A stretch of 64,000 bases of DNA from a virus. Numbering within the stretch: the stretch's first letter is position 1; the number at the start of each line of letters is the position of its first letter. The stretch is taken from positions 43,018-107,017 of the IMG/VR virus record IMGVR_UViG_3300031857_000054; one strand, written 5' to 3'. Made by a program: the position numbers and the translations under genes. A model generated the notes under the pieces. That model searched no databases. It saw nothing but the letters and a program-made list of their open reading frames with translations, and was not told the DNA's origin. This document shows, piece by piece, positions 1-15,176 of the stretch.

Positions 1-507
1 TTGTTTGATGACACTATGACTGTTGCTTACAAAGTAGGAGGCAAATGGGTATTTCACCAATGGATGGCTACCACAGATCCAGGTACTAAAGGTGTTAGAG
101 AATTTCACAATGCTGGTGGAGTAGCAAGACTAGTTCCAGGTCAGTACAGAGGTTCACACGGTATTGGTCTACACCAAGGTAAGTACGAAGCTTTGAAGCA
201 AGCTAAACCAGTGAAGGTTTATCGTGATGCTAACAAAGACATGACTTACGATGAGAATACCATCACTGAGGGTATCTACGGTATCAACATCCACAAAGCT
301 GGTGCAGATTCTACTTTTGTAGAAAACTGGAGCGAAGGATGCCAAGTGTTTAAGCGTGAGAAAGATTTTAACCAATTTATGGAAATCTGTAAACAAGCTC
401 GTGGCATTCATGGTAACTCTTTCACTTACACCTTGATTGAGTCTGGTGACTTTATTGTTGCTGACAAAGTAAAAGGCGAAGCTAAAAGAGCTGCTAAGAA
501 AAAATAA
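1..507 (+). CDS. Putative endolysin, L,D-transpeptidase (YkuD)-like catalytic domain; 5'-truncated by the window
   Basis: GINIH...WSEGCQV matches the H-x(n)-S-x-G-C catalytic motif. ORF is open at position 1. Confidence 0.6.
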   Translation: MFDDTMTVAYKVGGKWVFHQWMATTDPGTKGVREFHNAGGVARLVPGQYRGSHGIGLHQGKYEALKQAKPVKVYRDANKDMTYDENTITEGIYGINIHKAGADSTFVENWSEGCQVFKREKDFNQFMEICKQARGIHGNSFTYTLIESGDFIVADKVKGEAKRAAKKK

Positions 508-962
508 TGAAAAGACTACTCGTTAGTCTTTTAATATTCTTGACTATCTCCTGCAAAGCACAAACTATTGCTAAGGCAGGAGATGGTTGGGATTTAAAGA
601 TTGACTCAGCCATACAACTTATAAAGACCATTGACCCTGAAAAGTACAAAGTCTTTACAGATGTATGTCAAAGAGTTGATTTTTGGAAAAGTTCTTTTTC
701 TTCCACAGGTGTAGTCGAAGGAGACTATACCATACTAGTAGCAGACGCAGACATTAAGTTAAAGTCTATCAATAACTTAGCGGCTGTGTTAGTTCACGAA
801 AGTATGCATTTAGTATTTGTTTTACAAGATGCAGTCATGAGTGAAAAGGAAGAAGAGTATAAGTGCTATTTGTATGAATTATCCTTTATTAAAAACATCC
901 CAACCCCCGAGCCTTGGTTACTGGCAAACCTTTATGAAAAATTGCAAAAATATAAACCATGA
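507..962 (+). CDS. Exported/lipoprotein zinc metallopeptidase-like protein
   Basis: Signal peptide with possible lipobox (LTISC). VHESMH (HExxH) plus a downstream Glu cluster (EKEEE). Confidence 0.6.
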   Translation: MKRLLVSLLIFLTISCKAQTIAKAGDGWDLKIDSAIQLIKTIDPEKYKVFTDVCQRVDFWKSSFSSTGVVEGDYTILVADADIKLKSINNLAAVLVHESMHLVFVLQDAVMSEKEEEYKCYLYELSFIKNIPTPEPWLLANLYEKLQKYKP

Positions 963-2848
963 AAAAAATACTTTTGTTTGCGTTGGGATTGTTTATCCTC
1001 ACTACTAACTTATTTGCACAAAGTGCAAACACTTCTCCTGGAACTGGGCATTGGGTTGTTATCGACTCAGGTTATCAAGTAGCTACAACTACTGTAGGTA
1101 AAACTGTTGCTCCGTTACATTTCTACAACACTTCTACTAGTGAAAAAATTACAGGTATGCAGTTTCGTGTATTTTACGATAACACTGCATTTACTGGTGT
1201 TGTACCTTCTTTGAAGATTTCTACTTCAGATCAGTATCTTCAGTATGTAGATAGTAATTTACAAGGATTTTTAACTGTAACTCTAGCTTACACAGGTTCT
1301 AGTTCTACTTTTAACTATTCTGACGGTGCTACATTTGATTTAACTTTTACTCACGCTGCCGAAGCTATATTTAACAACTTAGATTCTATCAAGACTTTGA
1401 AAGTTGCAGGTGTGAAATCATTTGCAAATAGAGCTGCTACTAACTGGGGTAACGATACCACTTTGGTTGTCTACTCTTATGGTGGTCGTTTCAACCAAAA
1501 GGTTCTTCGCTTTGCTGCTAAGTTTAAAAACGTTACGGGTTCTGATGCTAAGAATCTTTGGGTATCTTTAGAAAAGAAAGCTCCTACAGGTTCTTGGACA
1601 CATGTAGAGTCAAAATCAACTAACTCATTGGGCCACGTAGTATTTAAGAAATTTATTGATACTACCTACTGGGATGTAAGAATGGTTGTTAAAGGCGATA
1701 CAATGACTCCTGGTAACGTATTCTCTACTGCTGATGCACAAAAGATTAACCAAGCAATCCTTGCACAATATACTCCAACAGGATTTGACTACTACACTAT
1801 GGATGTAAACGGAACTAGCGGAGACATTTCTATTGCTGACGTTTACTCTGTATACGGACGTTTGGCAGGAAGATTCTCTTCTTGGCCCAACTCTAAAAAA
1901 GACGTAATGTTCTTTACAGTAGCTGAGTATAATGCTATCAACGGTGCTACTGCTAATCCAACCTCTACTTACGCAACTGTTAACAACTTCAACTATTCTA
2001 TTGACGGTAAAGACTCTATTACTTACTACGTAGCAGTTAAAGGAGACGCAAACTCTACAGGATTTAAAATGGCTCGTTTGACTCCTATTAAAATTGTTAA
2101 CCAAGCAAATGCTAAGAACTACATCATTGACAAAACAGTAAGCTATGATGATCCTTCTTTGGAGACAGTAGAAATCAATATGCCCAAAGTAAAAGTAGAG
2201 GATGGCAATTTGGTGAGCGTACCAGTTAAAGTTTTAACTAACGGTAAAGACCTTACTGCTCTTCAGTTAGACCTTAAATATGATACTGCTTACTTGTCTT
2301 TCAAACAGATTGAAGTAACAGAAAAAATCATGAAGTGGACTGCCTACACAAACCCTTCTAATGGAGTTGTGTCTTGGGGAGGAGCTGACCTTACAAATGA
2401 CAATCTGTTAAAAGACGGAGAACAAGTATTTACTCTTCAGTTCATTGCTAAGAAACCACAGGATTCTTGGGCTACAGCAGCCATCTGGACAGCAGAAAAG
2501 TACGTAGGTGATAACAAGGCTAAGGATATGAACATTAGACCTACTATGGGCATTGTTGAGGTTCGTAGAAAAGGATTGGTATCTATCAACCAAGTAAGTG
2601 ACCTAATAGCATTTCCAAATCCTTCAGAAGGTGCTATCCAAGTACAATTCAAGATAGCCGAAGAGTCTGATGTAAACTTGTCTTTGTACAATGAGGTAGG
2701 TCAGTTAGTCCAAAATATTCTAGACAAGCACATGCCTGTAGGAAACTATAAGTATAGTGTAGATTTAGAAAGATTACCTGACGGAGTTTATATCTTAACT
2801 CTTAAAACAGAAAAACAATTCCTAGATTCTAAACTATTAATCATATGA
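959..2848 (+). CDS. Secreted cohesin/dockerin-like protein with T9SS type A C-terminal sorting domain
   Basis: Sec signal ending LFA-Q. Two cohesin-like segments (ITGMQFRVFYD; VSVPVKV..LTALQLDLKYD). Dockerin-like Ca loop DVNGTSGDISIAD. CTD with FPNP...LYNEVGQLV...LPDGVYILTL...KLLII. Confidence 0.85.
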   Translation: MKKILLFALGLFILTTNLFAQSANTSPGTGHWVVIDSGYQVATTTVGKTVAPLHFYNTSTSEKITGMQFRVFYDNTAFTGVVPSLKISTSDQYLQYVDSNLQGFLTVTLAYTGSSSTFNYSDGATFDLTFTHAAEAIFNNLDSIKTLKVAGVKSFANRAATNWGNDTTLVVYSYGGRFNQKVLRFAAKFKNVTGSDAKNLWVSLEKKAPTGSWTHVESKSTNSLGHVVFKKFIDTTYWDVRMVVKGDTMTPGNVFSTADAQKINQAILAQYTPTGFDYYTMDVNGTSGDISIADVYSVYGRLAGRFSSWPNSKKDVMFFTVAEYNAINGATANPTSTYATVNNFNYSIDGKDSITYYVAVKGDANSTGFKMARLTPIKIVNQANAKNYIIDKTVSYDDPSLETVEINMPKVKVEDGNLVSVPVKVLTNGKDLTALQLDLKYDTAYLSFKQIEVTEKIMKWTAYTNPSNGVVSWGGADLTNDNLLKDGEQVFTLQFIAKKPQDSWATAAIWTAEKYVGDNKAKDMNIRPTMGIVEVRRKGLVSINQVSDLIAFPNPSEGAIQVQFKIAEESDVNLSLYNEVGQLVQNILDKHMPVGNYKYSVDLERLPDGVYILTLKTEKQFLDSKLLII

Positions 2849-3195
2849 AACTAAAAGAAAAATTAGGTTTTGGCCAAGCAGAACCCGTAGCAGTAGCAGA
2901 CAACAATCGTTTCTACTACATGTTGCAACAAATGCAAGCCAATCGTTGGAAAATTACAGCTATTGTATTGGGGTTGTTTACCTTAATCATAGTTGGTATT
3001 AATGCTGCTGTCTTTGTAGGAGCTTCTATTGGAGAAGACTGGAAAGAAATGTTACTTATCCTCTTAGGAGCTTTTGTAGGTAACTTGAACAAAGTAGTTG
3101 ACTACTGGTTCAACTCTGAAGATAGAGACAAAATGTTAATACAGAAGGTGGATGAGGAGGATGGTGTATCTTTGTCAAACACAACTAATCCATAA
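2845..3195 (+). CDS. Two-TM membrane protein, holin-like
   Basis: Two hydrophobic helices ending LLGAFVG..KVVDYWFNS, resembling small phage holin-like proteins with a YxFGS-type tail. Charged C-terminus. Confidence 0.5.
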   Translation: MKLKEKLGFGQAEPVAVADNNRFYYMLQQMQANRWKITAIVLGLFTLIIVGINAAVFVGASIGEDWKEMLLILLGAFVGNLNKVVDYWFNSEDRDKMLIQKVDEEDGVSLSNTTNP

Positions 3196-3199
3196 TATT

Positions 3200-3523
3200 A
3201 TGTCAGAAGAACAAGAAGAAGGCGGAATGTCTGGTGTAAAGAAGGCAATCATCGGAGCAATTACCACAGCGGTAACTGCAGGTGGTGCTTGGTTTGCTAC
3301 TCACTTAGGTGGTGGCGAAGATGAAAAACCAGAAACTCCAGCAGCTGTAGCTGCTCCCGCACCTGTGATTAACATCACTACGAACAACGAACAGAAGCAA
3401 CAGGCAAACACTGGTGGCGGTAATACCGTCATCATTAAGGAAAAGGTAGCACCTGCTGCATCTACTCCTGCCCCTGCTGCTCCTGCATCTAAACCCCAAG
3501 CAGATGAAGAAGATCCTTGGTAG
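3200..3523 (+). CDS. Single-TM protein with Pro/Ala-rich extended tail
   Basis: ATG at 3200 follows the upstream stop and is preferred to 3152. TM AIIGAITTAVTAGGAWF, PA-rich linker, terminal DPW. Confidence 0.7.
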   Translation: MSEEQEEGGMSGVKKAIIGAITTAVTAGGAWFATHLGGGEDEKPETPAAVAAPAPVINITTNNEQKQQANTGGGNTVIIKEKVAPAASTPAPAAPASKPQADEEDPW

Positions 3524-4193
3524 CCTACTGTTAATAATCCTTATCTATGGTTGTGGTTCTATGAAGACCACAACCGAGGATGAGGTTATTGAGAAAAAAG
3601 ATATTTCTAGCGTGTCTGGATATACTGATTCTATTAAGAAGAACGTACAAGTAATTAGCATGGACATGACTAAAGTGTTGGCTATGTACCCAAGTCTTCA
3701 AGAGAAAAATGTAGGTTTAGGTTTTGCAGAATCCGTATTAGATTATTTAGATGAAACAAATCGTTTTGTATTTACTGAAGAGAAGGGTGAAATCAAGGAA
3801 AGGATGGTAACTCAATTCAAAGCTTCTAAAAAAGGAGTCTTTGAAGAACCTATTGACGGCAAAGGAAAAATTAAAGCTGCCCACTACTTTGTTTATGTAA
3901 CCGTTGCTGATTTTGCAGTAGACGAGGACGAGACTGTACAAGGTGGAAAAGCTAAAGTAGTGGTAACTACTTTTATCCGTTTGCAAGTTCGATTTGTAGA
4001 CGCTAAAACAGGACAAATTTACATTGGTTCTGGTGAAGGCGAATCTATAAAAGTAGGAGAGTCGTTCTTAAAATCTCTAGACGATATGAAGTTTTCTCAA
4101 AGTACCGTAGGTAAGGCAACACGAAAGTCGCTTGAAACAGCAACTACCAAAGTGATTGAAAACCTTATTAGAAACGGTGTCTTTAAGAGCTAA
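3504..4193 (+). CDS. CsgG/HfaB-family lipoprotein
   Basis: Lipobox IYGC. GLGFAESVLDYL..TNRFVFTE and IRLQVRFVDAKTGQI motifs typical of the CsgG/TolB-N-like fold. Confidence 0.8.
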   Translation: MKKILGSLLLIILIYGCGSMKTTTEDEVIEKKDISSVSGYTDSIKKNVQVISMDMTKVLAMYPSLQEKNVGLGFAESVLDYLDETNRFVFTEEKGEIKERMVTQFKASKKGVFEEPIDGKGKIKAAHYFVYVTVADFAVDEDETVQGGKAKVVVTTFIRLQVRFVDAKTGQIYIGSGEGESIKVGESFLKSLDDMKFSQSTVGKATRKSLETATTKVIENLIRNGVFKS

Positions 4194-5619
4194 CATATTA
4201 ATCTTACTATTGAGTATAGGACTGAGTTTAAAAGCTCAGTCCTTTACTTACTCGTACAAAGATCCGTGTACAAAAGAATTAAAGTTCATTCTTGCTGATA
4301 TGAACTCTCCGATAGTAATAAGTTACTACGGACAAGTAAAAAACTTCAGTTACACAGAATTGCAGGACGGTACATTTGACGCTTGGTTAAATTATACTTA
4401 TGCCAATTACAAAACAACAACCCCATGTCAAGGAGTTTTTGCAACAACTACTACAACTACAAGCACAGCAACTATAACTTCTTTAGTAAATAATGTGATG
4501 AATCTTAACTCTTTAACGAGTTTAGATTTATCTTCGACTTCGCTAGGATCAAGTACTTCAGTAGGAAGTACAACATCTTCTGGCACAAATGTAAAAAATG
4601 ACTCTAAAAATGGAAGCTCGAATAACAAAGTTGGTAGTAATGGAAACAATAGTACTACTGATAATTCTGGGAATAATTCTAGTAACAGTGACCAGTCATC
4701 TGGACAAGGGTCCAATACGTCGTCGGAAGGACAAGTAGGCAATGGAAGCAACTCAGGTAATAATTCTAATGGCTCTAATGATGCTGGGGGTAACTCTGGG
4801 AGTGGCTCTAGTTCTTCTTCTAGTGGTGGTGGTAATGGTTCTGGTGGAGGTGGTGGTTCAGGCACCGCAGGTGATAAGAAACCTGAAGAAAAAACTCCTG
4901 AAAAGATAGAAGAACAAAAGAGTGAAACTCAACAAGCAGGTGGAAGTTCGTCTGCAAAAGCCGCTGCTAAAGGGAAAGTAGAAACTCAAAAACCAGCTAT
5001 TCTAGTTACAGGAGATATAGTTGGAGTCCAAACAGTGCAAGATAAAGCACAAGACGCTAGGGCAACAATGTCCTTTACTAGAGTTAAAGGAGACGGTACT
5101 GCCTCTGTTGGACTTGCAGCTGACTATATGGTCAATGCTAAAATAGGAAACTTTAACGGCGTGCGTTCTTGGATGGGCGTTAACAAGAAAGGCAACAAAC
5201 ATATCAATGTTCTTTCGGCAGGAATTAACCTCATGCCAAAGTCTTACAACGGTTCTTTGTTGTTTGTAAGGGTAAACTCGCTGAAGAACTTTACAGCGCT
5301 CTACGGAGCCGCCGCATCGTATGGCGAGTTATTTCAAGAAGAAGTTATATCTACCCTACTGATAGGCGGTTTTATGTATAAGGGACAACTTACTAAACAC
5401 ATAGATGCTACTATTATTGCCGCTAGTGTTTACGCTCCTTATACAAAGTATTACACAGAATCTTTATTTGAATCTCAACCAATTATAGTTCCTTTTCTAA
5501 ACATCAACTACTCACTTACAAAAACTTTTAAGTTCGGACTTACAGGAGGAGGCACGTACATCGCCAATCAGGATGTCGTCAATTATCAAATCTTAATGGG
5601 AGGTAAGTTAAAGATATGA
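4156..5619 (+). CDS. Exported protein with Ser/Gly/Asn low-complexity linker and probable C-terminal outer-membrane beta-barrel
   Basis: Signal ending LKA-Q (start codon uncertain). ~120-aa S/G/N tract. C-terminal ~200 aa of alternating amphipathic strands. Confidence 0.6.
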   Translation: MKTLLETVSLRANILILLLSIGLSLKAQSFTYSYKDPCTKELKFILADMNSPIVISYYGQVKNFSYTELQDGTFDAWLNYTYANYKTTTPCQGVFATTTTTTSTATITSLVNNVMNLNSLTSLDLSSTSLGSSTSVGSTTSSGTNVKNDSKNGSSNNKVGSNGNNSTTDNSGNNSSNSDQSSGQGSNTSSEGQVGNGSNSGNNSNGSNDAGGNSGSGSSSSSSGGGNGSGGGGGSGTAGDKKPEEKTPEKIEEQKSETQQAGGSSSAKAAAKGKVETQKPAILVTGDIVGVQTVQDKAQDARATMSFTRVKGDGTASVGLAADYMVNAKIGNFNGVRSWMGVNKKGNKHINVLSAGINLMPKSYNGSLLFVRVNSLKNFTALYGAAASYGELFQEEVISTLLIGGFMYKGQLTKHIDATIIAASVYAPYTKYYTESLFESQPIIVPFLNINYSLTKTFKFGLTGGGTYIANQDVVNYQILMGGKLKI

Positions 5620-6818
5620 GATGGCTAGTCATTCTACTCTTGTTTGCAAGTCCTCTGAAGGCTCAATTTACTTATTCTGGATACTTGTACAATGCAAACG
5701 GTTCGGGCGCCTCTAACGTTCCCGTAAAAATATACAAGAGTACAGCAGGTGCTACTACTAAGTCAGGTACTTTTGCTAAGATAACTTCAGGTATTCCTTC
5801 AGATAGAGGACGAGGAACTTCAGTACTTCACTCAACTGCTAACACAGATGAAAAGTCTGTGGCTATTACATTTCCTTCTGGCTTTAGTCCTTCTTACGCA
5901 GGAACTAGCTATTCTTCAGGCCACGTTAACGCTAACTCTTGGTTTACTTTTGGAACAAGTTCTAGTACTGGATACAACGGAAATGCTACTAGTCCTAATC
6001 AACCTACTATCCATATTGGGTCGGTGGATAATGGCTCAACAGATAACAACGTTTCTTATGTATCAACTGAAAGTTACACTGATGGAACTTACGGTGATGT
6101 GTTTAGAGTAAGATACGAGGGTAACTGTAAGTACAACCAAACGGGAATCAATTATGTTTGGGATTTATACTTTATTAAAAACCAAGCCTCAAAGCAGATA
6201 GTGGTTTGGAGAACATTCACCGCAGACGGTTCCAACCAAGAAATAATGGGTATATCTACAGGTAGTGCTTGGATGGCAAGTACTCTCGTTACTACTGGTT
6301 CTTTTTCTGGCACTAGTTGGGAGATAAACACAACCTCAACCACTACAACAAGTTCTAATGTACTTGACGCTACTGCATATACTAACTCATCGGGATACTA
6401 CTCTTTCTCAAGAACTACAGTAGCAGGTAATCAATTCACTATTCAAGTCGATGCTCCAACTAGGATTCAAGCCTACACAAACTCAGACATCCAAGCAATA
6501 TCAGACCTCATCCTCAATAAAGTGGTTAAGACTGGGTTGACTTTTCAGATGTTTGACGTAAACGATGACTCTAAAATAACTGTAGCAGATAAATACTACG
6601 TAGCGGCAAGAAAGGCTGGAAGATTTTCTAAGTGGAGAATAGCACCTGATGTCCGTATCTTTACAACAGCACAATATGATGCTATCAAAGCTGCCACAAC
6701 AAATGTAAGAGGAACTTATCCTGGAGTCAGTACTTATACTACTTCTACTCTTACTTCTGGAGGAAGTTTAAGTCTTTACCTAATAGCACCTGGTTATGCA
6801 GGACAAGTAACATACTAA
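5616..6818 (+). CDS. Secreted dockerin-like protein with inserted nidogen(NIDO)-like passenger; paralogue of the 959..2848 central module
   Basis: Signal ending LKA-Q. DVNDDSKITVAD..AGRFSKW..DVRIFTTAQYDAI aligns with DVNGTSGDISIAD..AGRFSSW..DVMFFTVAEYNAI. No T9SS tail. Confidence 0.7.
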   Translation: MRWLVILLLFASPLKAQFTYSGYLYNANGSGASNVPVKIYKSTAGATTKSGTFAKITSGIPSDRGRGTSVLHSTANTDEKSVAITFPSGFSPSYAGTSYSSGHVNANSWFTFGTSSSTGYNGNATSPNQPTIHIGSVDNGSTDNNVSYVSTESYTDGTYGDVFRVRYEGNCKYNQTGINYVWDLYFIKNQASKQIVVWRTFTADGSNQEIMGISTGSAWMASTLVTTGSFSGTSWEINTTSTTTTSSNVLDATAYTNSSGYYSFSRTTVAGNQFTIQVDAPTRIQAYTNSDIQAISDLILNKVVKTGLTFQMFDVNDDSKITVADKYYVAARKAGRFSKWRIAPDVRIFTTAQYDAIKAATTNVRGTYPGVSTYTTSTLTSGGSLSLYLIAPGYAGQVTY

Positions 6819-6819
6819 C

Positions 6820-7260
6820 ATGAAAAAACTAATCATACTCTTAATCCTAGCATTTGCAGGTTCGTTGAATGCACAATGCTACAAAATTGACACCGTTAGA
6901 AACCACACACAACTAAGAACTATTGCAGGTAGGCCTGTAGACTTTGGTATAGTGGCAACGGCTGAACAACTTATCTCTGCCAAGTATTCGCTGTGCGATA
7001 CAGGCATTGGAGTTGACCTTGCAATTAACACAATTGCTATGCCTCAAAGACTAATTAACATTGCAGGGTTGCAGTTTTTAAAGAGGGACTATGTAGTCAA
7101 TATGTCCATCACAGCTAATAACATTACACATTATTCTAGGAACGTAAAGACCGTTTATGTCAATGCTATGTTCCTAACTGTAGAGGACATTCCTCACAAC
7201 AAAAAAGCATACTCTAGGGCAGTAGAGAAGTGCTTAATAGATTTAGTTAAGGAGTTGTAG
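6820..7260 (+). CDS. Secreted protein of unknown function
   Basis: Sec signal ending LNA-Q. Last gene of the tightly coupled cassette. Confidence 0.75.
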   Translation: MKKLIILLILAFAGSLNAQCYKIDTVRNHTQLRTIAGRPVDFGIVATAEQLISAKYSLCDTGIGVDLAINTIAMPQRLINIAGLQFLKRDYVVNMSITANNITHYSRNVKTVYVNAMFLTVEDIPHNKKAYSRAVEKCLIDLVKEL

Positions 7261-7349
7261 CCCGTATTTACTGGGGTTTCCAGTTATAATCTTATCTTAA
7301 CTTTAGTTGTTAAGTTTTTAGCTTAACTTACTTAGTTATAACTTTAGAC

Positions 7350-7379
7350 TTGACTTTTTATATTAGGATAGTATATTTG
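7350..7379 (+). promoter_or_regulatory. Bacteroidota primary-sigma promoter (-33/-7)
   Basis: TTG (7350-52), 19-nt spacer, TATATTTG (7372-79), upstream of ATG 7410. Confidence 0.8.
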
Positions 7380-7409
7380 CATTAGTTGTAACAGACAACC
7401 AACCATATT

Positions 7410-7790
7410 ATGAAAAAACTTTTGCGAAAGTACCCTGACCCTATTTTAATTCACAGGGATTACATTGATGTCTTGCTGAGGCTAGCAGGTTATCGCTTAT
7501 CTGATTTATCAGTAACAATTTTAGCATACTCTAGTTACAGAAAAGCATTGACCTCTGAGACTAAGAAAGAGATTGCGGAAAAGTTTAACACAAGCATCCA
7601 AGTAATTTCTAACACAATCACCAAGTTAAGAAAACAACAGTTATTGTTGAAGAACAACTTGAATCCTAAATTGAAACCAGAAAACGACAACCAATCAGCA
7701 TTAACCATTTATTTTACTCTAGAGCCTAAAACTAAAATAAGAAAAACTGTATTGTCAGAAAGTAACATAACGGAACAGACTCCTGCATGA
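7410..7790 (+). CDS. Winged-HTH DNA-binding protein
   Basis: KKEIAEKFNTSIQVISNTITKLRKQQLL helix-turn-helix pattern. Confidence 0.65.
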   Translation: MKKLLRKYPDPILIHRDYIDVLLRLAGYRLSDLSVTILAYSSYRKALTSETKKEIAEKFNTSIQVISNTITKLRKQQLLLKNNLNPKLKPENDNQSALTIYFTLEPKTKIRKTVLSESNITEQTPA

Positions 7791-8990: not shown

Positions 8991-9308
8991 ATGGCACAGA
9001 AAAAACAATCTTACATCTCAGCTGAACTAGAGTGGGCAGAGGAGAAACTTAGAGAATGGAGACAGTATGTGGATTCAAATCCACTACATTCTTTAAAAGA
9101 CCGAGTAGAATGGAAACCAACTTCTAAAGGTGGTTCTATTCCTATGGTAATTGCTTCTATTGAACAACAGATTAAATCAATACGTGATACCATGAAAGAG
9201 TATCTTGCTCTTTTAGATGTGGTAGATAAACTTCGTGAGAAAGAAGAAGCCAAACTTGAGATACGTGGTTCTCAAGAAGTTAATGGCAAGATGAGTAAAT
9301 TTATGTAA
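8991..9308 (+). CDS. Conserved protein upstream of TerL, candidate terminase small subunit
   Basis: Position directly before TerL, helical/coiled-coil character, C-terminal EIRG. Confidence 0.5.
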   Translation: MAQKKQSYISAELEWAEEKLREWRQYVDSNPLHSLKDRVEWKPTSKGGSIPMVIASIEQQIKSIRDTMKEYLALLDVVDKLREKEEAKLEIRGSQEVNGKMSKFM

Positions 9309-11409: not shown

Positions 11410-13860
11410 ATGATCATAGAAGCACTCAAAGAGTACACTGATGCACTGAATCACGCATACTTTTATCCAGAGCAATTTGTTTCTGCAGCCAAGAAACAAA
11501 AGCCTCAGTGGATTAAATCTACCCTTGACTACTTTGCAAATATTGCATTTGCCCAGTACCGACAAAACATAAAATTCAGAAAAAACTACCGTCTATTTAA
11601 CGGAGAGTTTAACTTTGATGATTACACCAATGAGCCCCAGATACAAGAAATTATTAGTTACCTTTCAGATACTCCTGATCAAGAGCCAGAAATTCCTCAG
11701 CATCTTAAGCATTATCCAATAGTCAACCCACCTATCAATCAATTAAAGGGTGAGTTAATTAACAGACCATTTAAGTATAAGGTCAAAGCTGTTGACGATG
11801 CGAGTGTAGATGAGAACATTGACTTCCGTACTGACTTAATTAAAGAGTTCTTCATGAATAAAATGATGGCTCGTTTAGAAGGAGTACCTGAAGAACAGTT
11901 ACAGCAGATTCAAGAAGAGATGATGGCTGAGATTCAAAACAAAATCTTGGACTACACTTCTACTGCCGAAGAGTGGGGCAACAAAGTACTTAATGCACTT
12001 AAGTATAGTTTCCGTTTAAAAGAAAAGTCTAGTCAAGGTTTCTTAGATTTCTTGATTACAGGACAAGAGTTTCACCACTTCTACCCAGACAATTCAAGAA
12101 TCGGATTTAACTACAAAGTAGAAAACCCATCTAACGTATGGTACTTAGCTAATCGTAATGCTATGTATACTACTGATTGTTGGGCTTTAGGTACTATTGA
12201 AGTTCTTTCTATGTCTGAAATAGTAGAGAGATATAATCTTTCTGGTGAAGAAGTTAAGCACTTGAATAGTCGTTCTTTACAGAATCTTCGTAACAACGAA
12301 TATTCTCCATTGTCTCCTGCACTTCCAGACCCTAATGACCCATTGTGGCAGTTGACATTTGAGAACGTGGGTGACTTTGCCAATGGAGGTATTGACCACA
12401 ACGTATTCTCGTTCAACTCTCAACACGCCTACACAGTAGTTACTTGTTACTGGCAGTCTAAAAAGAAGATATATAAGCGTCAGTACATAGACGAACAAGG
12501 ATACCTTCAAGAACAATTTGTAAGTGAAGACTACAAGTACGATAAAACTATGGGCGATATTGCTCTAGATGAGTTGTGGATTAACGAATGGTGGAAGGGT
12601 ATTAAGATTGGTGCTGACATCTACATTGATGTAGAGCCTCTAGAGTATAGCCAAACTCCTCCAATTGTAGGTATTGTAAACACTACTCGTAATACGCAAG
12701 GCAAATCCTTGCTTGATCTTCTTAAGCCTTACCAAGTTCTTTACAACATTTGTATGAACCAGTTGTGGGAGTTACTTGAGAAAGAGATTGGTGTGGTATT
12801 CTTGGGTGACTTAAAAGTAGTGCCTAAGAAAGATTCTCAAGATCCAATTGAGACAATGCTTTGGAATGCCAAGAATCGTGGTACTTTGTTTATTGATACA
12901 TCTCCAGAGAATACTGGTGGAGCTGTTCAGTTCAACCAAATGTCTCGTGTAGACTTGACTAGAACTGCAGAAATTCAATCTCGTATCCAATTGGCACAAG
13001 CTCTCCGTACAGAGGCATACGAACTTATTGGTGTAACTCGCCAGCGTCTAGGTTCAGTAACTCCCTCTGAGACGGCTACTGCTACTAAAGAAGGACTTAC
13101 TCAATCATTCTCTCAAACAGAAACATGGTTTGCTTGGCATGATAACGTAATGCAACAAGTATATCAAACAATGTTGGAGATGGCTCAGTATACAGAATTG
13201 CAAAAGCCTACCTCTACTTTGAACTACTTAAACTCAGAATTGGAAACTGTATTCTTACGTATAACTAAGAATGAGTTACTCCGTGAGTTGTTTGTATTTG
13301 TGACATCATACGCTGAGGATAGAGTAACACTTGAACAGTTGCGTTCGTTGGCTCAACCCGCACTTCAGAATGGTGCAGAGTTGATTGAGATTTTTGACCT
13401 GTACACCGCTGCCTCAGAACGTTCACTTCGTCACGTATTAGAAGGCGTACAAGAACGTAAAGCTCAATTGCAACAACAGCAAATGGCACAACAGCAACAA
13501 CAGATGGAAATGCAACAACAACAATTCCAAACTAAACTTGCTGCAGATGCTGAACAAAAACAACAAGATGCACAACGTGAGGATATGAACAAAGAACTCG
13601 ACCGTCAGAACAGACTTGACGTAGAGCGTCTGCGTGGTATTGCTAACGAATCTTCTTTCTCACAAGACAAAGATTTGACTCCTCTATTGATACAACAAGC
13701 TAACTTGGCTAAGGAACAATCTAAGATGCGATTTGAGCAACTTAAGAATGCTGACCAAGTTAGTCTTAAGAGTAGAGAGTTAGATTTAAAGGAAAAAGAC
13801 ATCGATACTAAGCTGCAAATAGCTAAGCAAAACAAGAATAAATACGATAAGAAGAAATAA
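11410..13860 (+). CDS. Portal protein
   Basis: 816 aa directly after TerL. crAss-type HYPIVNPPINQLKGE, WINEWWKG, LKPYQVLYNI motifs. Gln-rich coiled-coil C-terminus. Confidence 0.9.
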   Translation: MIIEALKEYTDALNHAYFYPEQFVSAAKKQKPQWIKSTLDYFANIAFAQYRQNIKFRKNYRLFNGEFNFDDYTNEPQIQEIISYLSDTPDQEPEIPQHLKHYPIVNPPINQLKGELINRPFKYKVKAVDDASVDENIDFRTDLIKEFFMNKMMARLEGVPEEQLQQIQEEMMAEIQNKILDYTSTAEEWGNKVLNALKYSFRLKEKSSQGFLDFLITGQEFHHFYPDNSRIGFNYKVENPSNVWYLANRNAMYTTDCWALGTIEVLSMSEIVERYNLSGEEVKHLNSRSLQNLRNNEYSPLSPALPDPNDPLWQLTFENVGDFANGGIDHNVFSFNSQHAYTVVTCYWQSKKKIYKRQYIDEQGYLQEQFVSEDYKYDKTMGDIALDELWINEWWKGIKIGADIYIDVEPLEYSQTPPIVGIVNTTRNTQGKSLLDLLKPYQVLYNICMNQLWELLEKEIGVVFLGDLKVVPKKDSQDPIETMLWNAKNRGTLFIDTSPENTGGAVQFNQMSRVDLTRTAEIQSRIQLAQALRTEAYELIGVTRQRLGSVTPSETATATKEGLTQSFSQTETWFAWHDNVMQQVYQTMLEMAQYTELQKPTSTLNYLNSELETVFLRITKNELLRELFVFVTSYAEDRVTLEQLRSLAQPALQNGAELIEIFDLYTAASERSLRHVLEGVQERKAQLQQQQMAQQQQQMEMQQQQFQTKLAADAEQKQQDAQREDMNKELDRQNRLDVERLRGIANESSFSQDKDLTPLLIQQANLAKEQSKMRFEQLKNADQVSLKSRELDLKEKDIDTKLQIAKQNKNKYDKKK

Positions 13861-13905
13861 GAATTTCACTTTATCTATATTTACACACTCACTTTTTTTA
13901 ACCTA

Positions 13906-13935
13906 TTGTGTTAATTTTTTAATAGGTTAACTTTG
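13906..13935 (+). promoter_or_regulatory. Bacteroidota promoter for scaffold/MCP, overlapped by a 10-bp inverted repeat
   Basis: TTG (13906-08), 19 nt, TAACTTTG (13928-35). TTAACCTATT 13898-907 / AATAGGTTAA 13921-30. Confidence 0.75.
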
Positions 13936-13964
13936 AAAACAGACAAACCAACCAACTAATTGTC

Positions 13965-15176
13965 ATGAATAACAACCCAAACGACGACCAATTAGGTTTA
14001 GACAACCTAGAGTTCTTTGAAAATTTTGCTACTGATGATCCCCTAGAGGATCCCCAGTTTGATCCCAACGCTAATCTTGCCCCTGATATTTTGGGTGGCG
14101 AGAAGATGGACTTAGAAGACGATGACCTTCCTATGGGAGGACAAGGTAAAAAACCAACGGCTCCTGCAACTCCTGCCACTCCTCCAGCCTCTACTCCTAA
14201 TGAAGAAGAAGAGGAAGAAGAAGACGATGACAACAAGTCTGCAGGCAACCAAGAGCTAGAAGATGATGACTTAGAAGATGATTCTGACGACATTAACTAC
14301 TACGAAGCTTTTGGTAAAGGATTGCTGAAGTCAGGACATTTTGATTTAGGTGAGGAAATTGATCCTGACCAAGTAGAATGGACTGAAGAAAGTTTCCTTG
14401 AAATGATGTCTGCTACCGTTGAGAACAAAGCGTGGAAACAACTAGAGGAAATTGCTACTGAGGCTTATGGTCCAGAAGGACTTGAATTGGTGAAAGACCT
14501 TTTCATTAATAAAGTCCCTGTACAACAATACCTTTCTAAGTTCAACGAACAAGTTGCACTTGAAAATGTTGACTTGACTAATCCTCAGAACCAAGAAGCT
14601 ATCTTCCGTGAGTATCTTTCTCGCACTGGTTTAGACCAAGATGAGATTGATGAACAACTTGAATATGCTGTCAAGACTAATAAACTTGAGAACTTCTCAG
14701 AAAAGTACTACGTAAAATTACTTGAACGTAGTAGACAAGAGAGAGAAGTGTTAGCAGAACAAAGTGCTCAGAAACAAAGAGAAGCACAAGAAAGAGAAAA
14801 TGCAAGACAAGAATCTTACATTAAAACTTTGGAAGGTGCAATCAAGACAGGAGATATTAACGGCTTCCCTATCAATCAGAATGAAGCAGCTAACTTATTT
14901 GACTATGTAACTAACAAAAGTTATCAGTTACCTAACGGTCAAAAGATTAGCGAGTTTGAGTTTACCTTGGCAAAGATGCGTCAAGAAGATCCTCAAAAGT
15001 TTCTAGCAGTAGCAAGGTTAGTTCAATCTAACTTAGACCTAGCTCCAGTTAAGAAGAAAGGTGTAAGTGAGGAGACTAACTCAATTTTCCAAGAACTGCA
15101 AAAAAAGTCTAAAAAAGGACCTAAAGGAGAACCTAGAAAAGAGACCCAACTCTTTAGTAATTTCTTCGGTAGATAA
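13965..15176 (+). CDS. Acidic scaffold-like capsid assembly protein
   Basis: Very acidic N-terminus and coiled coil, located between portal and MCP as in crAss-like phages. Confidence 0.7.
   Translation: MNNNPNDDQLGLDNLEFFENFATDDPLEDPQFDPNANLAPDILGGEKMDLEDDDLPMGGQGKKPTAPATPATPPASTPNEEEEEEEDDDNKSAGNQELEDDDLEDDSDDINYYEAFGKGLLKSGHFDLGEEIDPDQVEWTEESFLEMMSATVENKAWKQLEEIATEAYGPEGLELVKDLFINKVPVQQYLSKFNEQVALENVDLTNPQNQEAIFREYLSRTGLDQDEIDEQLEYAVKTNKLENFSEKYYVKLLERSRQEREVLAEQSAQKQREAQERENARQESYIKTLEGAIKTGDINGFPINQNEAANLFDYVTNKSYQLPNGQKISEFEFTLAKMRQEDPQKFLAVARLVQSNLDLAPVKKKGVSEETNSIFQELQKKSKKGPKGEPRKETQLFSNFFGR

Follow-up and report, generated by a model that had tools for sequence, protein, structure and literature searches.

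Lytic phages are thought to leave the surface of the host cell largely alone. Phage proteins that do alter this surface include Llp of phage T5 and Bor and Lom of phage lambda, which are single small exported proteins or lipoproteins encoded near tail-fiber or lysis genes and have defined protein targets; the changes that they make to the surface protect the progeny or the host cell. Here, we describe a cassette of eight phage genes, g1 to g8, located at positions 507-7260 of a window of 64,000 nucleotides, by which we mean the whole stretch of DNA that was analyzed (positions 43018-107017 of the 107,017-bp IMG/VR virus record IMGVR_UViG_3300031857_000054; completeness 92% according to CheckV). 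Like Llp, Bor and Lom, the cassette products are exported phage proteins encoded beside tail-fiber or lysis genes, but they appear to form a multi-part assembly with predicted glycan-binding heads, for which receptor masking would be one possible role. We propose that the cassette encodes a late-expressed surface scaffold displaying interchangeable glycan-binding heads on the infected Bacteroidota cell, and we put the probability of this interpretation at roughly one half.

Two previously described sets of phage genes resemble parts of the cassette. In “Cryophage,” genes for proteins with a type IX secretion system (T9SS) C-terminal domain (CTD) of type A, one of them with a PA14 domain, are highly variable between near-identical phages, and a change of the host surface has been proposed (Bellas et al., 2020, PMC7468147). 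Like these genes, the cassette includes phage-encoded T9SS cargo and a protein that varies between near-identical phages, with PA14 among its heads in relatives. However, each variable protein in Cryophage has its own CTD, whereas the cassette pairs a single CTD-bearing cohesin scaffold with heads that lack a CTD, and adds a CsgG-like lipoprotein, a barrel, inner-membrane parts and a fixed eight-gene order beside lysis genes. The second set consists of the CsgG/CsgF clusters of the pelagimyophages and the Methylophilales phage Melnitz, which contain no curlin and whose suggested roles are in the control of lysis or the capture of cells (PMC7029224, PMC9004378). These are also small operons of lytic aquatic phages with a CsgG-superfamily lipoprotein and no curlin genes. 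Yet, their proteins match CsgG directly, have been modeled with barrel hairpins and are accompanied by CsgF, whereas the g5 protein of the cassette is much more divergent, lacks credible transmembrane (TM) hairpins as well as CsgF, and is encoded together with T9SS cargo in phages of putative Bacteroidota hosts.

A further likeness is to the cellulosome, in which a surface-anchored cohesin scaffold holds interchangeable subunits that carry one small calcium-loop docking module at a fixed end and differ in their heads. The cassette differs from the cellulosome in being encoded by a phage and in its anchor, for which a T9SS type A CTD takes the place of an S-layer homology domain or a sortase signal. 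It also differs in that the putative docking module has one canonical calcium loop and falls below the Dockerin_1 cut-off, and in that the heads are lectin-type domains whereas those of the cellulosome are enzymes. Phage T9SS cargo, phage CsgG homologs and cohesin-dockerin assembly are thus already known separately, and what is new is their combination in one cassette; full-text searches of the literature found neither cohesin-dockerin modules in phages nor a cassette of this combined kind described.

The g2 scaffold and the variable heads of g7

The eight open reading frames are all located on the + strand and abut or overlap, forming a 6.7-kb module (507-962, 959-2848, 2845-3195, 3152(3200)-3523, 3504-4193, 4156-5619, 5616-6818 and 6820-7260). 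A preliminary description of the window, made from the sequence alone, had called them eight consecutive abutting or overlapping genes whose products are exported and act in the envelope, and both statements are borne out by the reading frames and their export signals. One detail needs correction: the conserved start of g4 in an alignment of 21 homologs is Met17 (window position 3200) of the reading frame listed from 3152, and hence g3 and g4 abut without overlap. Overlaps of 4 nt are seen at g1/g2, g2/g3 and g6/g7, and the overlapping reading frames suggest translational coupling.

N-terminal signal peptides were identified in g1, g2, g6, g7 and g8, all with a predicted Ala|Gln cleavage site. 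Five of the five signal peptidase I signal peptides in the cassette thereby follow the Q-rule of the Bacteroidetes (PMC5837995), which has also been recorded for phages of P. gingivalis (PMC10367356). Of the remaining proteins, g5 has a lipobox (IYG-C), g3 two strong TM helices and g4 one weaker helix rich in Gly, Ala and Thr. A crude hydropathy scan found signal peptide-like or TM-like segments in 16 of the 95 major open reading frames of the genome, 7 of which are consecutive cassette genes, and this clustering is far from chance. Taken together, the signal peptides, lipobox and TM helices support an action of the cassette products in the envelope, and the Q-rule signal peptides and the T9SS CTD of g2 point to a host in the Bacteroidota.

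The central component is g2 (959-2848, + strand), which encodes a 629-aa scaffold protein and putative T9SS cargo with an N-terminal hydrophobic segment (hydropathy score 3.12). After its signal peptide, a weak cohesin-like domain at aa 44-155 is followed by a beta-sandwich at aa 202-248 and, at aa 250-345 (nt 1706-1993), by a dockerin-like module; a cohesin occupies aa 405-526 (nt 2171-2536), and the last 77 residues (aa 552-628, nt 2612-2842) are covered by a T9SS type A CTD. The earlier calls of a cohesin and a T9SS CTD both stand, as the matches exceed the curated cut-offs. The whole protein scores 42.9 bits against the Cohesin family PF00963 (cut-off 24.1) and the cohesin at aa 405-526 alone 36.6 bits, whereas the N-terminal one stays below this cut-off (18.3 bits alone, 20.6 bits in a six-frame search). 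The CTD scores 44.2 bits against Por_Secre_tail PF18962 (cut-off 27) and 35 bits against TIGR04183 (cut-off 23), with 47.7 bits in the six-frame search of the genome, in which g2 was the sole protein with a CTD and the sole protein with a cohesin. Judged by these profiles, g2 is predicted to be a bona fide T9SS type A cargo protein with cohesin domains.

The second key component is g7 (5616-6818, + strand), a predicted exported protein of 400 aa with conserved ends and a swappable center. The signal peptide and the first strands (aa 1-43) are conserved, as are the beta-sandwich and the dockerin-like module near the C-terminus (nt 6468-6740, module aa 285-375), and in between is the swappable head (aa 44-243). 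Positions 5722-6453 (g7 aa ~36-280) have no nucleotide similarity to a phage whose flanking sequence on both sides is 96-97% identical, and which has a C-type lectin head in this place (E 7e-18). At least five head types occupy the g7 slot across relatives, including C-type lectin (Lectin_C, 58.7-65.7 bits, cut-off 22.6), PA14 (26.5 bits, cut-off 24) and GEVED (54 bits, cut-off 24.4). All three are carbohydrate-binding or adhesion modules. The head type of the window itself is 89-100% conserved in the two phage lineages that carry the cassette, which is more than the scaffold, suggesting that heads have been exchanged independently. This phage (locus L001) and a 94-97% identical IMG/VR phage (L052), the same two genomes whose g7 heads differ, have different distal parts in both large tail-fiber genes as well; the replaced parts (L001:11205-12314 and 12996-14075) correspond to genome positions ~39.2-40.3 kb and 41.0-42.1 kb, just 5′ of the window.

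The two proteins are linked by a common module of ~120 aa (g2 aa 221-341 and g7 aa 256-371), which is 38% identical between them (E 1e-14). In the alignment, this module has one canonical calcium loop, DVNxDGxIxxxD, while the upstream segment retains only the helix-like part, xxDxQxIxxxIL, and does not make up the second of two tandem calcium segments. The Dockerin_1 family (PF00404) was matched by 10 of 26 homologs of the module (best E 1.1e-4), and the g2 and g7 copies in the window gave no match to PF00404 at E <= 0.1. The dockerin of the preliminary description can thereby be kept in part: the calcium loop and the matches of relatives speak for it, the single loop and Pfam scores below the cut-off against it. 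By its sequence, the module is best described as dockerin-like and not as a true dockerin.

Recurrence of the cassette and its genomic setting

The same g1-g8 order recurs in >100 viral contigs. In a set of 49 IMG/VR loci anchored on the terminase, about 30 have g1-g8 in order between the endolysin gene and a helix-turn-helix (HTH) gene, and at least 14 lack all eight genes although the terminases are 75-85% identical. Among close crAss-like relatives, the cassette is thus all-or-none. The gene order was the same in 80 loci anchored on g5, and the cassette was also identified in complete genomes of 166-176 kb, one of them with terminal repeats, which contain no homolog of the terminase or capsid protein of the window. 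As the same order is found in genomes that share neither protein, we conclude that the cassette has passed from one phage lineage to another, unrelated one. In the phages of 166-176 kb, a gene for a GroEL-type chaperonin (phrog_5725, E 6e-144) is located directly 5′ of the cassette (L126:5161-6762).

Among one genome per species for 185,579 prokaryote species, the cassette was matched only once, on a 16.5-kb contig of a metagenome-assembled genome (MAG). This contig (RFPL01000028.1, L051) was binned to a Sphingomonadaceae MAG and carries holin, endolysin and g1-g7; it has the look of a phage contig that was mis-binned and not of bacterial DNA. As the sole match in a species genome itself carries the holin, the endolysin and the cassette, we consider the cassette to be phage DNA and not a host fragment. 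A chimeric join with host DNA, which the preliminary description had named as a possible pitfall, can be rejected, as the junctions between g8, the HTH gene and the terminase and between the endolysin gene and g1 recur in dozens of independent IMG/VR contigs. The cassette also resembles the remaining phage genome in composition, as the first reading had indicated, with the same GC content (0.37-0.39).

Not all parts of the cassette are equally persistent. In the second lineage (B), some copies lack g1 and some lack g3, leaving g2, g4, g5, g6, g7 and g8 as the core. More distant marine relatives, in which g5 is 33-38% identical, retain a g2-like protein, g5 and a g6-like protein, which argues for an old functional link among these three parts. 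The marine g2-like protein is 940-990 aa long with weak cohesin and CTD matches, and the g6-like protein has the same N-domain and barrel as g6 without its Ser/Gly/Asn-rich linker. In these relatives, a second, shorter g5-like gene follows the barrel gene (L137, 11886-12401) and a 4Fe-4S ferredoxin gene is located just 5′ of g5 (L137, 9710-9997). Viromes from freshwater and from the sea contain the cassette in abundance, and each gene has between hundreds and >1,000 protein clusters. Some relatives of g5 (86-87% identity) are encoded by contigs that measure 252-307 kb and so exceed both phage lineages in length; these contigs may be larger phages, concatemers or bacterial DNA.

These patterns bear on the possibility that there is no system at all, and that the cassette is a run of unrelated morons accumulated at a recombination hot spot beside the lysis genes. 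The slot after the endolysin gene is variable among relatives, g1 and g3 can be dispensed with, and homing endonuclease or other genes have been inserted into some cassettes, all of which is what such a history would leave behind. Nevertheless, we regard it as very improbable, given a gene order kept in more than a hundred contigs of two unrelated lineages, the all-or-none presence, the overlapping reading frames, the module common to g2 and g7, and the retention of the g2-like/g5/g6 core in the marine phages. The inserts are of two types: a homing endonuclease-like gene (phrog_314) between g5 and g6 in some relatives (L126:10753-11352), and two genes for proteins of 196 and 156 aa without signal peptides between g3 and g4 in 14 loci (L064:8349-9436). 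The latter pair is also present in one relative without the cassette (L030).

The source phage is crAss-like. The large terminase matches phrog_6681 (E 1e-93) and is 29-38% identical to the terminases of crAss-like and Flavobacterium/Cellulophaga phages; the portal protein matches phrog_6547 and is followed by a major head protein and three giant proteins of 2.3-2.5 kaa. When the first 8 kb were compared with 50,697 phage records by blastn, no match was obtained. The cassette is placed between the holin and endolysin genes and the terminase region. Upstream are three tail-fiber-like genes, a holin-like gene whose translation has 84 aa and two TM segments (genome 42623-42877, just 5′ of the endolysin gene), and the endolysin gene, the 3′ part of which occupies positions 1-507 (+ strand) of the window. 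The full endolysin gene starts 131 nt before the window and encodes 212 aa, with matches to phrog_3000 (E 5.5e-37) and to the “endolysin” phrog_33083 (E 4.4e-12). Downstream, the cassette unit is closed by an intergenic gap of ~150 nt (7261-7409, + strand), followed by the HTH gene (ATG at 7410), four small genes and the terminase gene.

A Bacteroidota-type -7-like motif, TATATTTG, is located in this gap at 7372-7379, 30 nt 5′ of the ATG of the HTH gene, and another, TATTTTTG, 22 nt 5′ of the ATG of the holin gene. Ahead of the HTH gene, the holin gene and the tail-fiber operon, motifs of the form TAnnTTTG are found at a distance of 22-30 nt from the first ATG (window 7372-7379; L001:14594-14601 and 9011-9018). 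This motif shows no overall enrichment (22 found, 22 expected), and it is its placement before the holin gene, the HTH gene and the fiber operon that is suggestive of promoters. Together with the abutting reading frames, the motifs before the holin gene and after g8 suggest that the cassette may be transcribed together with the holin and endolysin genes.

The g5 lipoprotein, the g6 barrel and the smaller proteins

The g5 gene (3504-4193, + strand) encodes a 229-aa lipoprotein with the lipobox LIYG-C at residues 13-17, of which the family consensus retains G-C. No other cassette gene is as conserved (80-93% identity across lineages), and its family comprises 155 clusters at 50% identity in a whole-library search. 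The g5 and g6 families include 832 and 1,252 database proteins, respectively, none of which has a Pfam label and nearly all of which are unnamed; one g5 relative has been labeled “LpoB” by JGI. The g5 protein of the window had no Pfam match at E <= 0.1, but 16 of 43 aligned relatives match CsgG (PF03783, best E 1.9e-25) and 7 of 43 match LpoB, and the family profile matches E. coli CsgG (3x2r, E 3.9e-5). An AlphaFold2 (AF2) monomer model (predicted local distance difference test score, pLDDT, 81.7) has CsgG as its best Foldseek match (4uv2, E 1.1e-7). With VIA, the best score was obtained for 6l7a (Z 12.7, 172 residues aligned, root-mean-square deviation 3.9), followed by Cj1090c (Z 10.2), PelC (9.6) and LptE (9.4), and the best match in BFVD is a phage “CsgG.” By profile and modeled fold, g5 is a divergent member of the CsgG/LpoB superfamily.

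The preliminary description had gone further and suggested an outer-membrane secretion pore, while noting that no curlin gene is present. In CsgG, each subunit contributes two amphipathic hairpins to a membrane pore of 36 strands. In the g5 monomer model, the hairpin that aligns with the TM1 hairpin of CsgG (aa 128-166) carries four acidic residues at its tip and two Lys behind a Gly-Gly turn, and the equivalent of TM2 is ~10 residues shorter and modeled as a strand and a short helix. With a charged hairpin tip and the second hairpin missing, a pore of the CsgG type is not supported, so that the superfamily assignment stands and the pore does not. The absence of curlin was confirmed, as none of the eight cassette proteins has a Pfam match to CsgA, CsgB, CsgE or CsgF. 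These observations argue against a curli-like (type VIII-like) secretion system, in which g5 would form a pore for g7, g8 or a fiber protein and the fibers would aggregate cells in a “sibling capture.” This explanation can draw on the similarity of g5 to CsgG in both fold and profile, on the curlin-less CsgG/CsgF operons of the pelagimyophages and Melnitz (PMC7029224, PMC9004378), on the long Ser/Gly/Asn-rich region of g6 and on the presence of FapF, an amyloid secretion barrel, among the structural neighbors of g6. However, g5 is also ~50 residues shorter than CsgG, the same fold is found in the non-pore lipoproteins LpoB, PelC, LptE and FlgT, and the marine g6 relatives do without the linker. 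We therefore think that a curli-like role is unlikely.

The 487-aa g6 protein (4156-5619, + strand) is a predicted outer-membrane protein on the basis of its signal peptide and model. Its N-domain of 70 aa (nt 4231-4452), which contains a Cys pair and is conserved down to the marine relatives, is joined by a Ser/Gly/Asn-rich linker of ~190 aa to a C-terminal barrel that makes up the last 218 residues (nt 4963-5616). The beta-barrel of the first reading is upheld by the AF2 model, which has 12 antiparallel strands (pLDDT 82) and exclusively outer-membrane barrels as Foldseek matches (TamA, intimin, FapF, NalP and KdgM), and we conclude that g6 ends in a predicted outer-membrane barrel. In a wide VIA search, the highest score was found for CymA (Z 17.2), followed by the T9SS shuttle PorV (6h3i_F, Z 14.4) and EspP/NalP (Z 13.5-13.8). 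The order of signal peptide, N-terminal passenger-like domain, linker and C-terminal 12-stranded barrel is reminiscent of the type Va autotransporters, and NalP, EspP and PorV, the last a barrel of the PorV/FadL type, are all among the neighbors (Z 13.5-14.4). Unlike in these proteins, the passenger of g6 is only 70 aa long and sits on a disordered stalk, CymA scores higher, and g6 has no Pfam autotransporter match. As the structural neighbors are generic outer-membrane barrels, the barrel cannot be assigned to a subfamily. A complex prediction of g5 with the g6 barrel and the g6 N-domain (0.00 against a mark of 0.32) gave no answer and was not used either way.

The remaining genes encode smaller proteins. 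The 151-aa product of g1 (507-962, + strand) is a mini-zincin-like protein that has a signal peptide and, C-terminal to an HExxH motif, conserved Glu residues; residues H97, E98, H101, E116, E117, C120, Y121 and E124 are invariant among 16 homologs, and there is a weak match to Tox-MPTase2 (E 0.053). The g3 gene (2845-3195, + strand) encodes a predicted inner-membrane protein of 116 aa with two TM helices (hydropathy score 2.65) and a charged C-terminus, which is 73-97% identical among relatives. The g4 gene (3200-3523, + strand) encodes a 107-aa protein that, from the alignment of its homologs, is a putative type II membrane protein, with an acidic N-terminus, a Gly/Ala/Thr-rich TM helix, an extended Pro/Ala-rich stretch in the periplasm and the motif EE[DE]PW, which is invariant, at the C-terminus. 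A GldL/GldM-like or ExbB/ExbD/TonB-like motor of g3 and g4 was considered and dropped, as there is no conserved acidic residue embedded in the membrane. The 146-aa g8 protein (6820-7260, + strand), also with a signal peptide, is encoded by a gene that evolves faster than all others in the cassette (31-99% identity). It had no match in the Protein Data Bank (PDB) or to any profile, and no relative of known fold was detected; the idea that it is a small paralog of g5 was rejected (hhalign probability <1%). More generally, PDB sequence and profile searches for g1, g2, g7 and g8 gave nothing usable.

Lysis, exclusion or a lectin-bearing surface

The main alternative to a surface scaffold follows from the constant adjacency to the holin and endolysin genes, which adjoin the cassette in both phage lineages. 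The cassette is located directly 3′ of the holin and endolysin A genes in the crAss-like genomes, and directly 5′ of a holin-like gene, homologous to that of the window, and an unrelated endolysin B gene (phrog_181, E 1e-65) in the 166-176 kb phages. It could accordingly be the outer-envelope arm of the lysis system and replace the spanins, in which case g4 in the inner membrane and the outer-membrane lipoprotein g5 would span the periplasm, the outer membrane or its tethers would be weakened by g6 and g1, and the surface proteins would contribute to the shedding of the cell's coat. In crAss-like relatives without the cassette, the slot after the endolysin gene is filled by genes for small TM and coiled-coil or secreted proteins, which never occur together with the cassette and may be equivalents of spanins. 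The g4/g5 overlap furthermore resembles that of many spanin gene pairs, and phage CsgGF has been suggested to be a lysis regulator (Buchholz et al., PMC9004378).

Several features do not fit a lysis accessory. The periplasmic part of g4 is rich in Pro and Ala without heptads or a coiled coil, and g5 is a globular CsgG-like protein of 212 aa, unlike the short, Pro-rich o-spanins, so that the pair does not look like a two-component spanin. Swappable heads, a cohesin scaffold and T9SS dependence are of no evident use in the fusion or disruption of membranes, and at 6.7 kb the cassette exceeds the known genes for spanins or disruptins by an order of magnitude. Varied and unrelated envelope genes, including a thioredoxin-like one, occupy the slot 3′ of the endolysin gene, so that this slot looks like a hot spot for morons, and the marine core relatives have no adjoining endolysin gene in the 19 kb seen. 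We consider a lysis accessory to be improbable, though less so than a curli-like system. Where the cassette is absent, the genes in this slot include those for a TM and coiled-coil protein and for a secreted protein with a coiled coil, as well as, in a different clade, one for a thioredoxin-like protein that is secreted (L015:6261-7004; L034:6757-7432).

Superinfection exclusion in the envelope was also considered. According to this explanation, g3 to g6 would form a trans-envelope block to the DNA entry or receptor access of other phages, with the lectin scaffold being secondary. An accessory, all-or-none cassette that is mobile between lineages and acts in the envelope is compatible with such a role, as is the conservation pattern: g5 and g3, which would need to fit conserved host parts, rank highest, and g8 and g1 lowest. 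However, no PADLOC defense model was matched, and known exclusion proteins are encoded by single small genes. These phages look lytic, with no integrase in the regions examined, which would limit the benefit to the latent period, and the T9SS cargo and the swapping of heads would be left unexplained. We find this explanation about as unlikely as curli-like secretion.

We favor the hypothesis of a late-expressed surface scaffold with interchangeable glycan-binding heads. The cassette is an accessory and horizontally mobile phage module that is most likely transcribed late together with the holin and endolysin genes, and the products of which would use the Sec, Lol, BAM and type IX pathways of the host to build a scaffold on the outer face of the infected cell. 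In this model, the g2 scaffold would be exported by the T9SS via its type A CTD and presumably be anchored to anionic lipopolysaccharide, and g7 would be an exchangeable glycan-binding head that plugs its dockerin-like module into the cohesin of g2; g7 may leave the cell with g2 as a folded complex. The g5 and g6 proteins would be deeply conserved partners at the outer membrane, g3 and g4 parts in the inner membrane, and g1 a mini-zincin. The dying cell and its membrane debris would in this way be covered by a lectin coat. Such a coat could mask glycan receptors, thereby protecting the progeny and excluding other phages, or it could tether neighboring host cells, as has been proposed for phage curli genes (PMC7029224). 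Receptor masking and sibling tethering would fit equally well. The suggestion in the preliminary description that the infected cell surface is remodeled is made more plausible by the lectin-type heads in the g7 slot of relatives, although its purpose is deduced indirectly. The additional claim of a self-contained apparatus does not hold, as no outer-membrane route is evident for g7 or g8.

A number of observations weigh against this hypothesis. The g7, g8 and g1 proteins have no T9SS CTD and their passage across the outer membrane is unexplained, and the scaffold gives no role to g3, g4, g5, g6 and g8, while the constant vicinity of the holin and endolysin genes could indicate a lysis role instead. 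The module has one calcium loop where type I dockerins have two, the full-length relatives reach 15.8-17.1 bits against a PF00404 cut-off of 22.9, and the module profile matches PDB dockerins only with E 0.6-2.2. The head of g7 in the window (aa 44-243) matched no lectin or other family in profile and PDB searches. Finally, a link between fiber tips and heads is drawn from one near-identical pair and a 13-locus cross-table that is confounded by ancestry. This link matters for a more specific version of the hypothesis, which we put forward as speculative and doubtful, although less so than the lysis accessory. In this version, the cassette would be a mobile “lectin coat” kit, in which a T9SS-exported cohesin scaffold carries lectin heads that lack a CTD and have a dockerin-like tag in a piggy-back secretion. 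The heads would swap with the tips of the tail fibers and bind the strain-specific receptor glycan of the phage, so that the coat at lysis would mask the receptor on the debris or tie siblings to the bursting cell.

If the surface scaffold hypothesis is correct, the cassette would provide a concrete case of a phage that re-dresses its host with exchangeable glycan-binding heads, and would be relevant to the loss of progeny on debris, to superinfection exclusion and to the aggregation of cells in dilute waters. The cassette may also explain the function of the curlin-less CsgG homologs in other phages, and it could offer a natural modular system for surface display in the Bacteroidota. If the “lectin coat” version were to be true as well, the cassette would represent a new class of multi-protein phage device, which manages adsorption after the burst.

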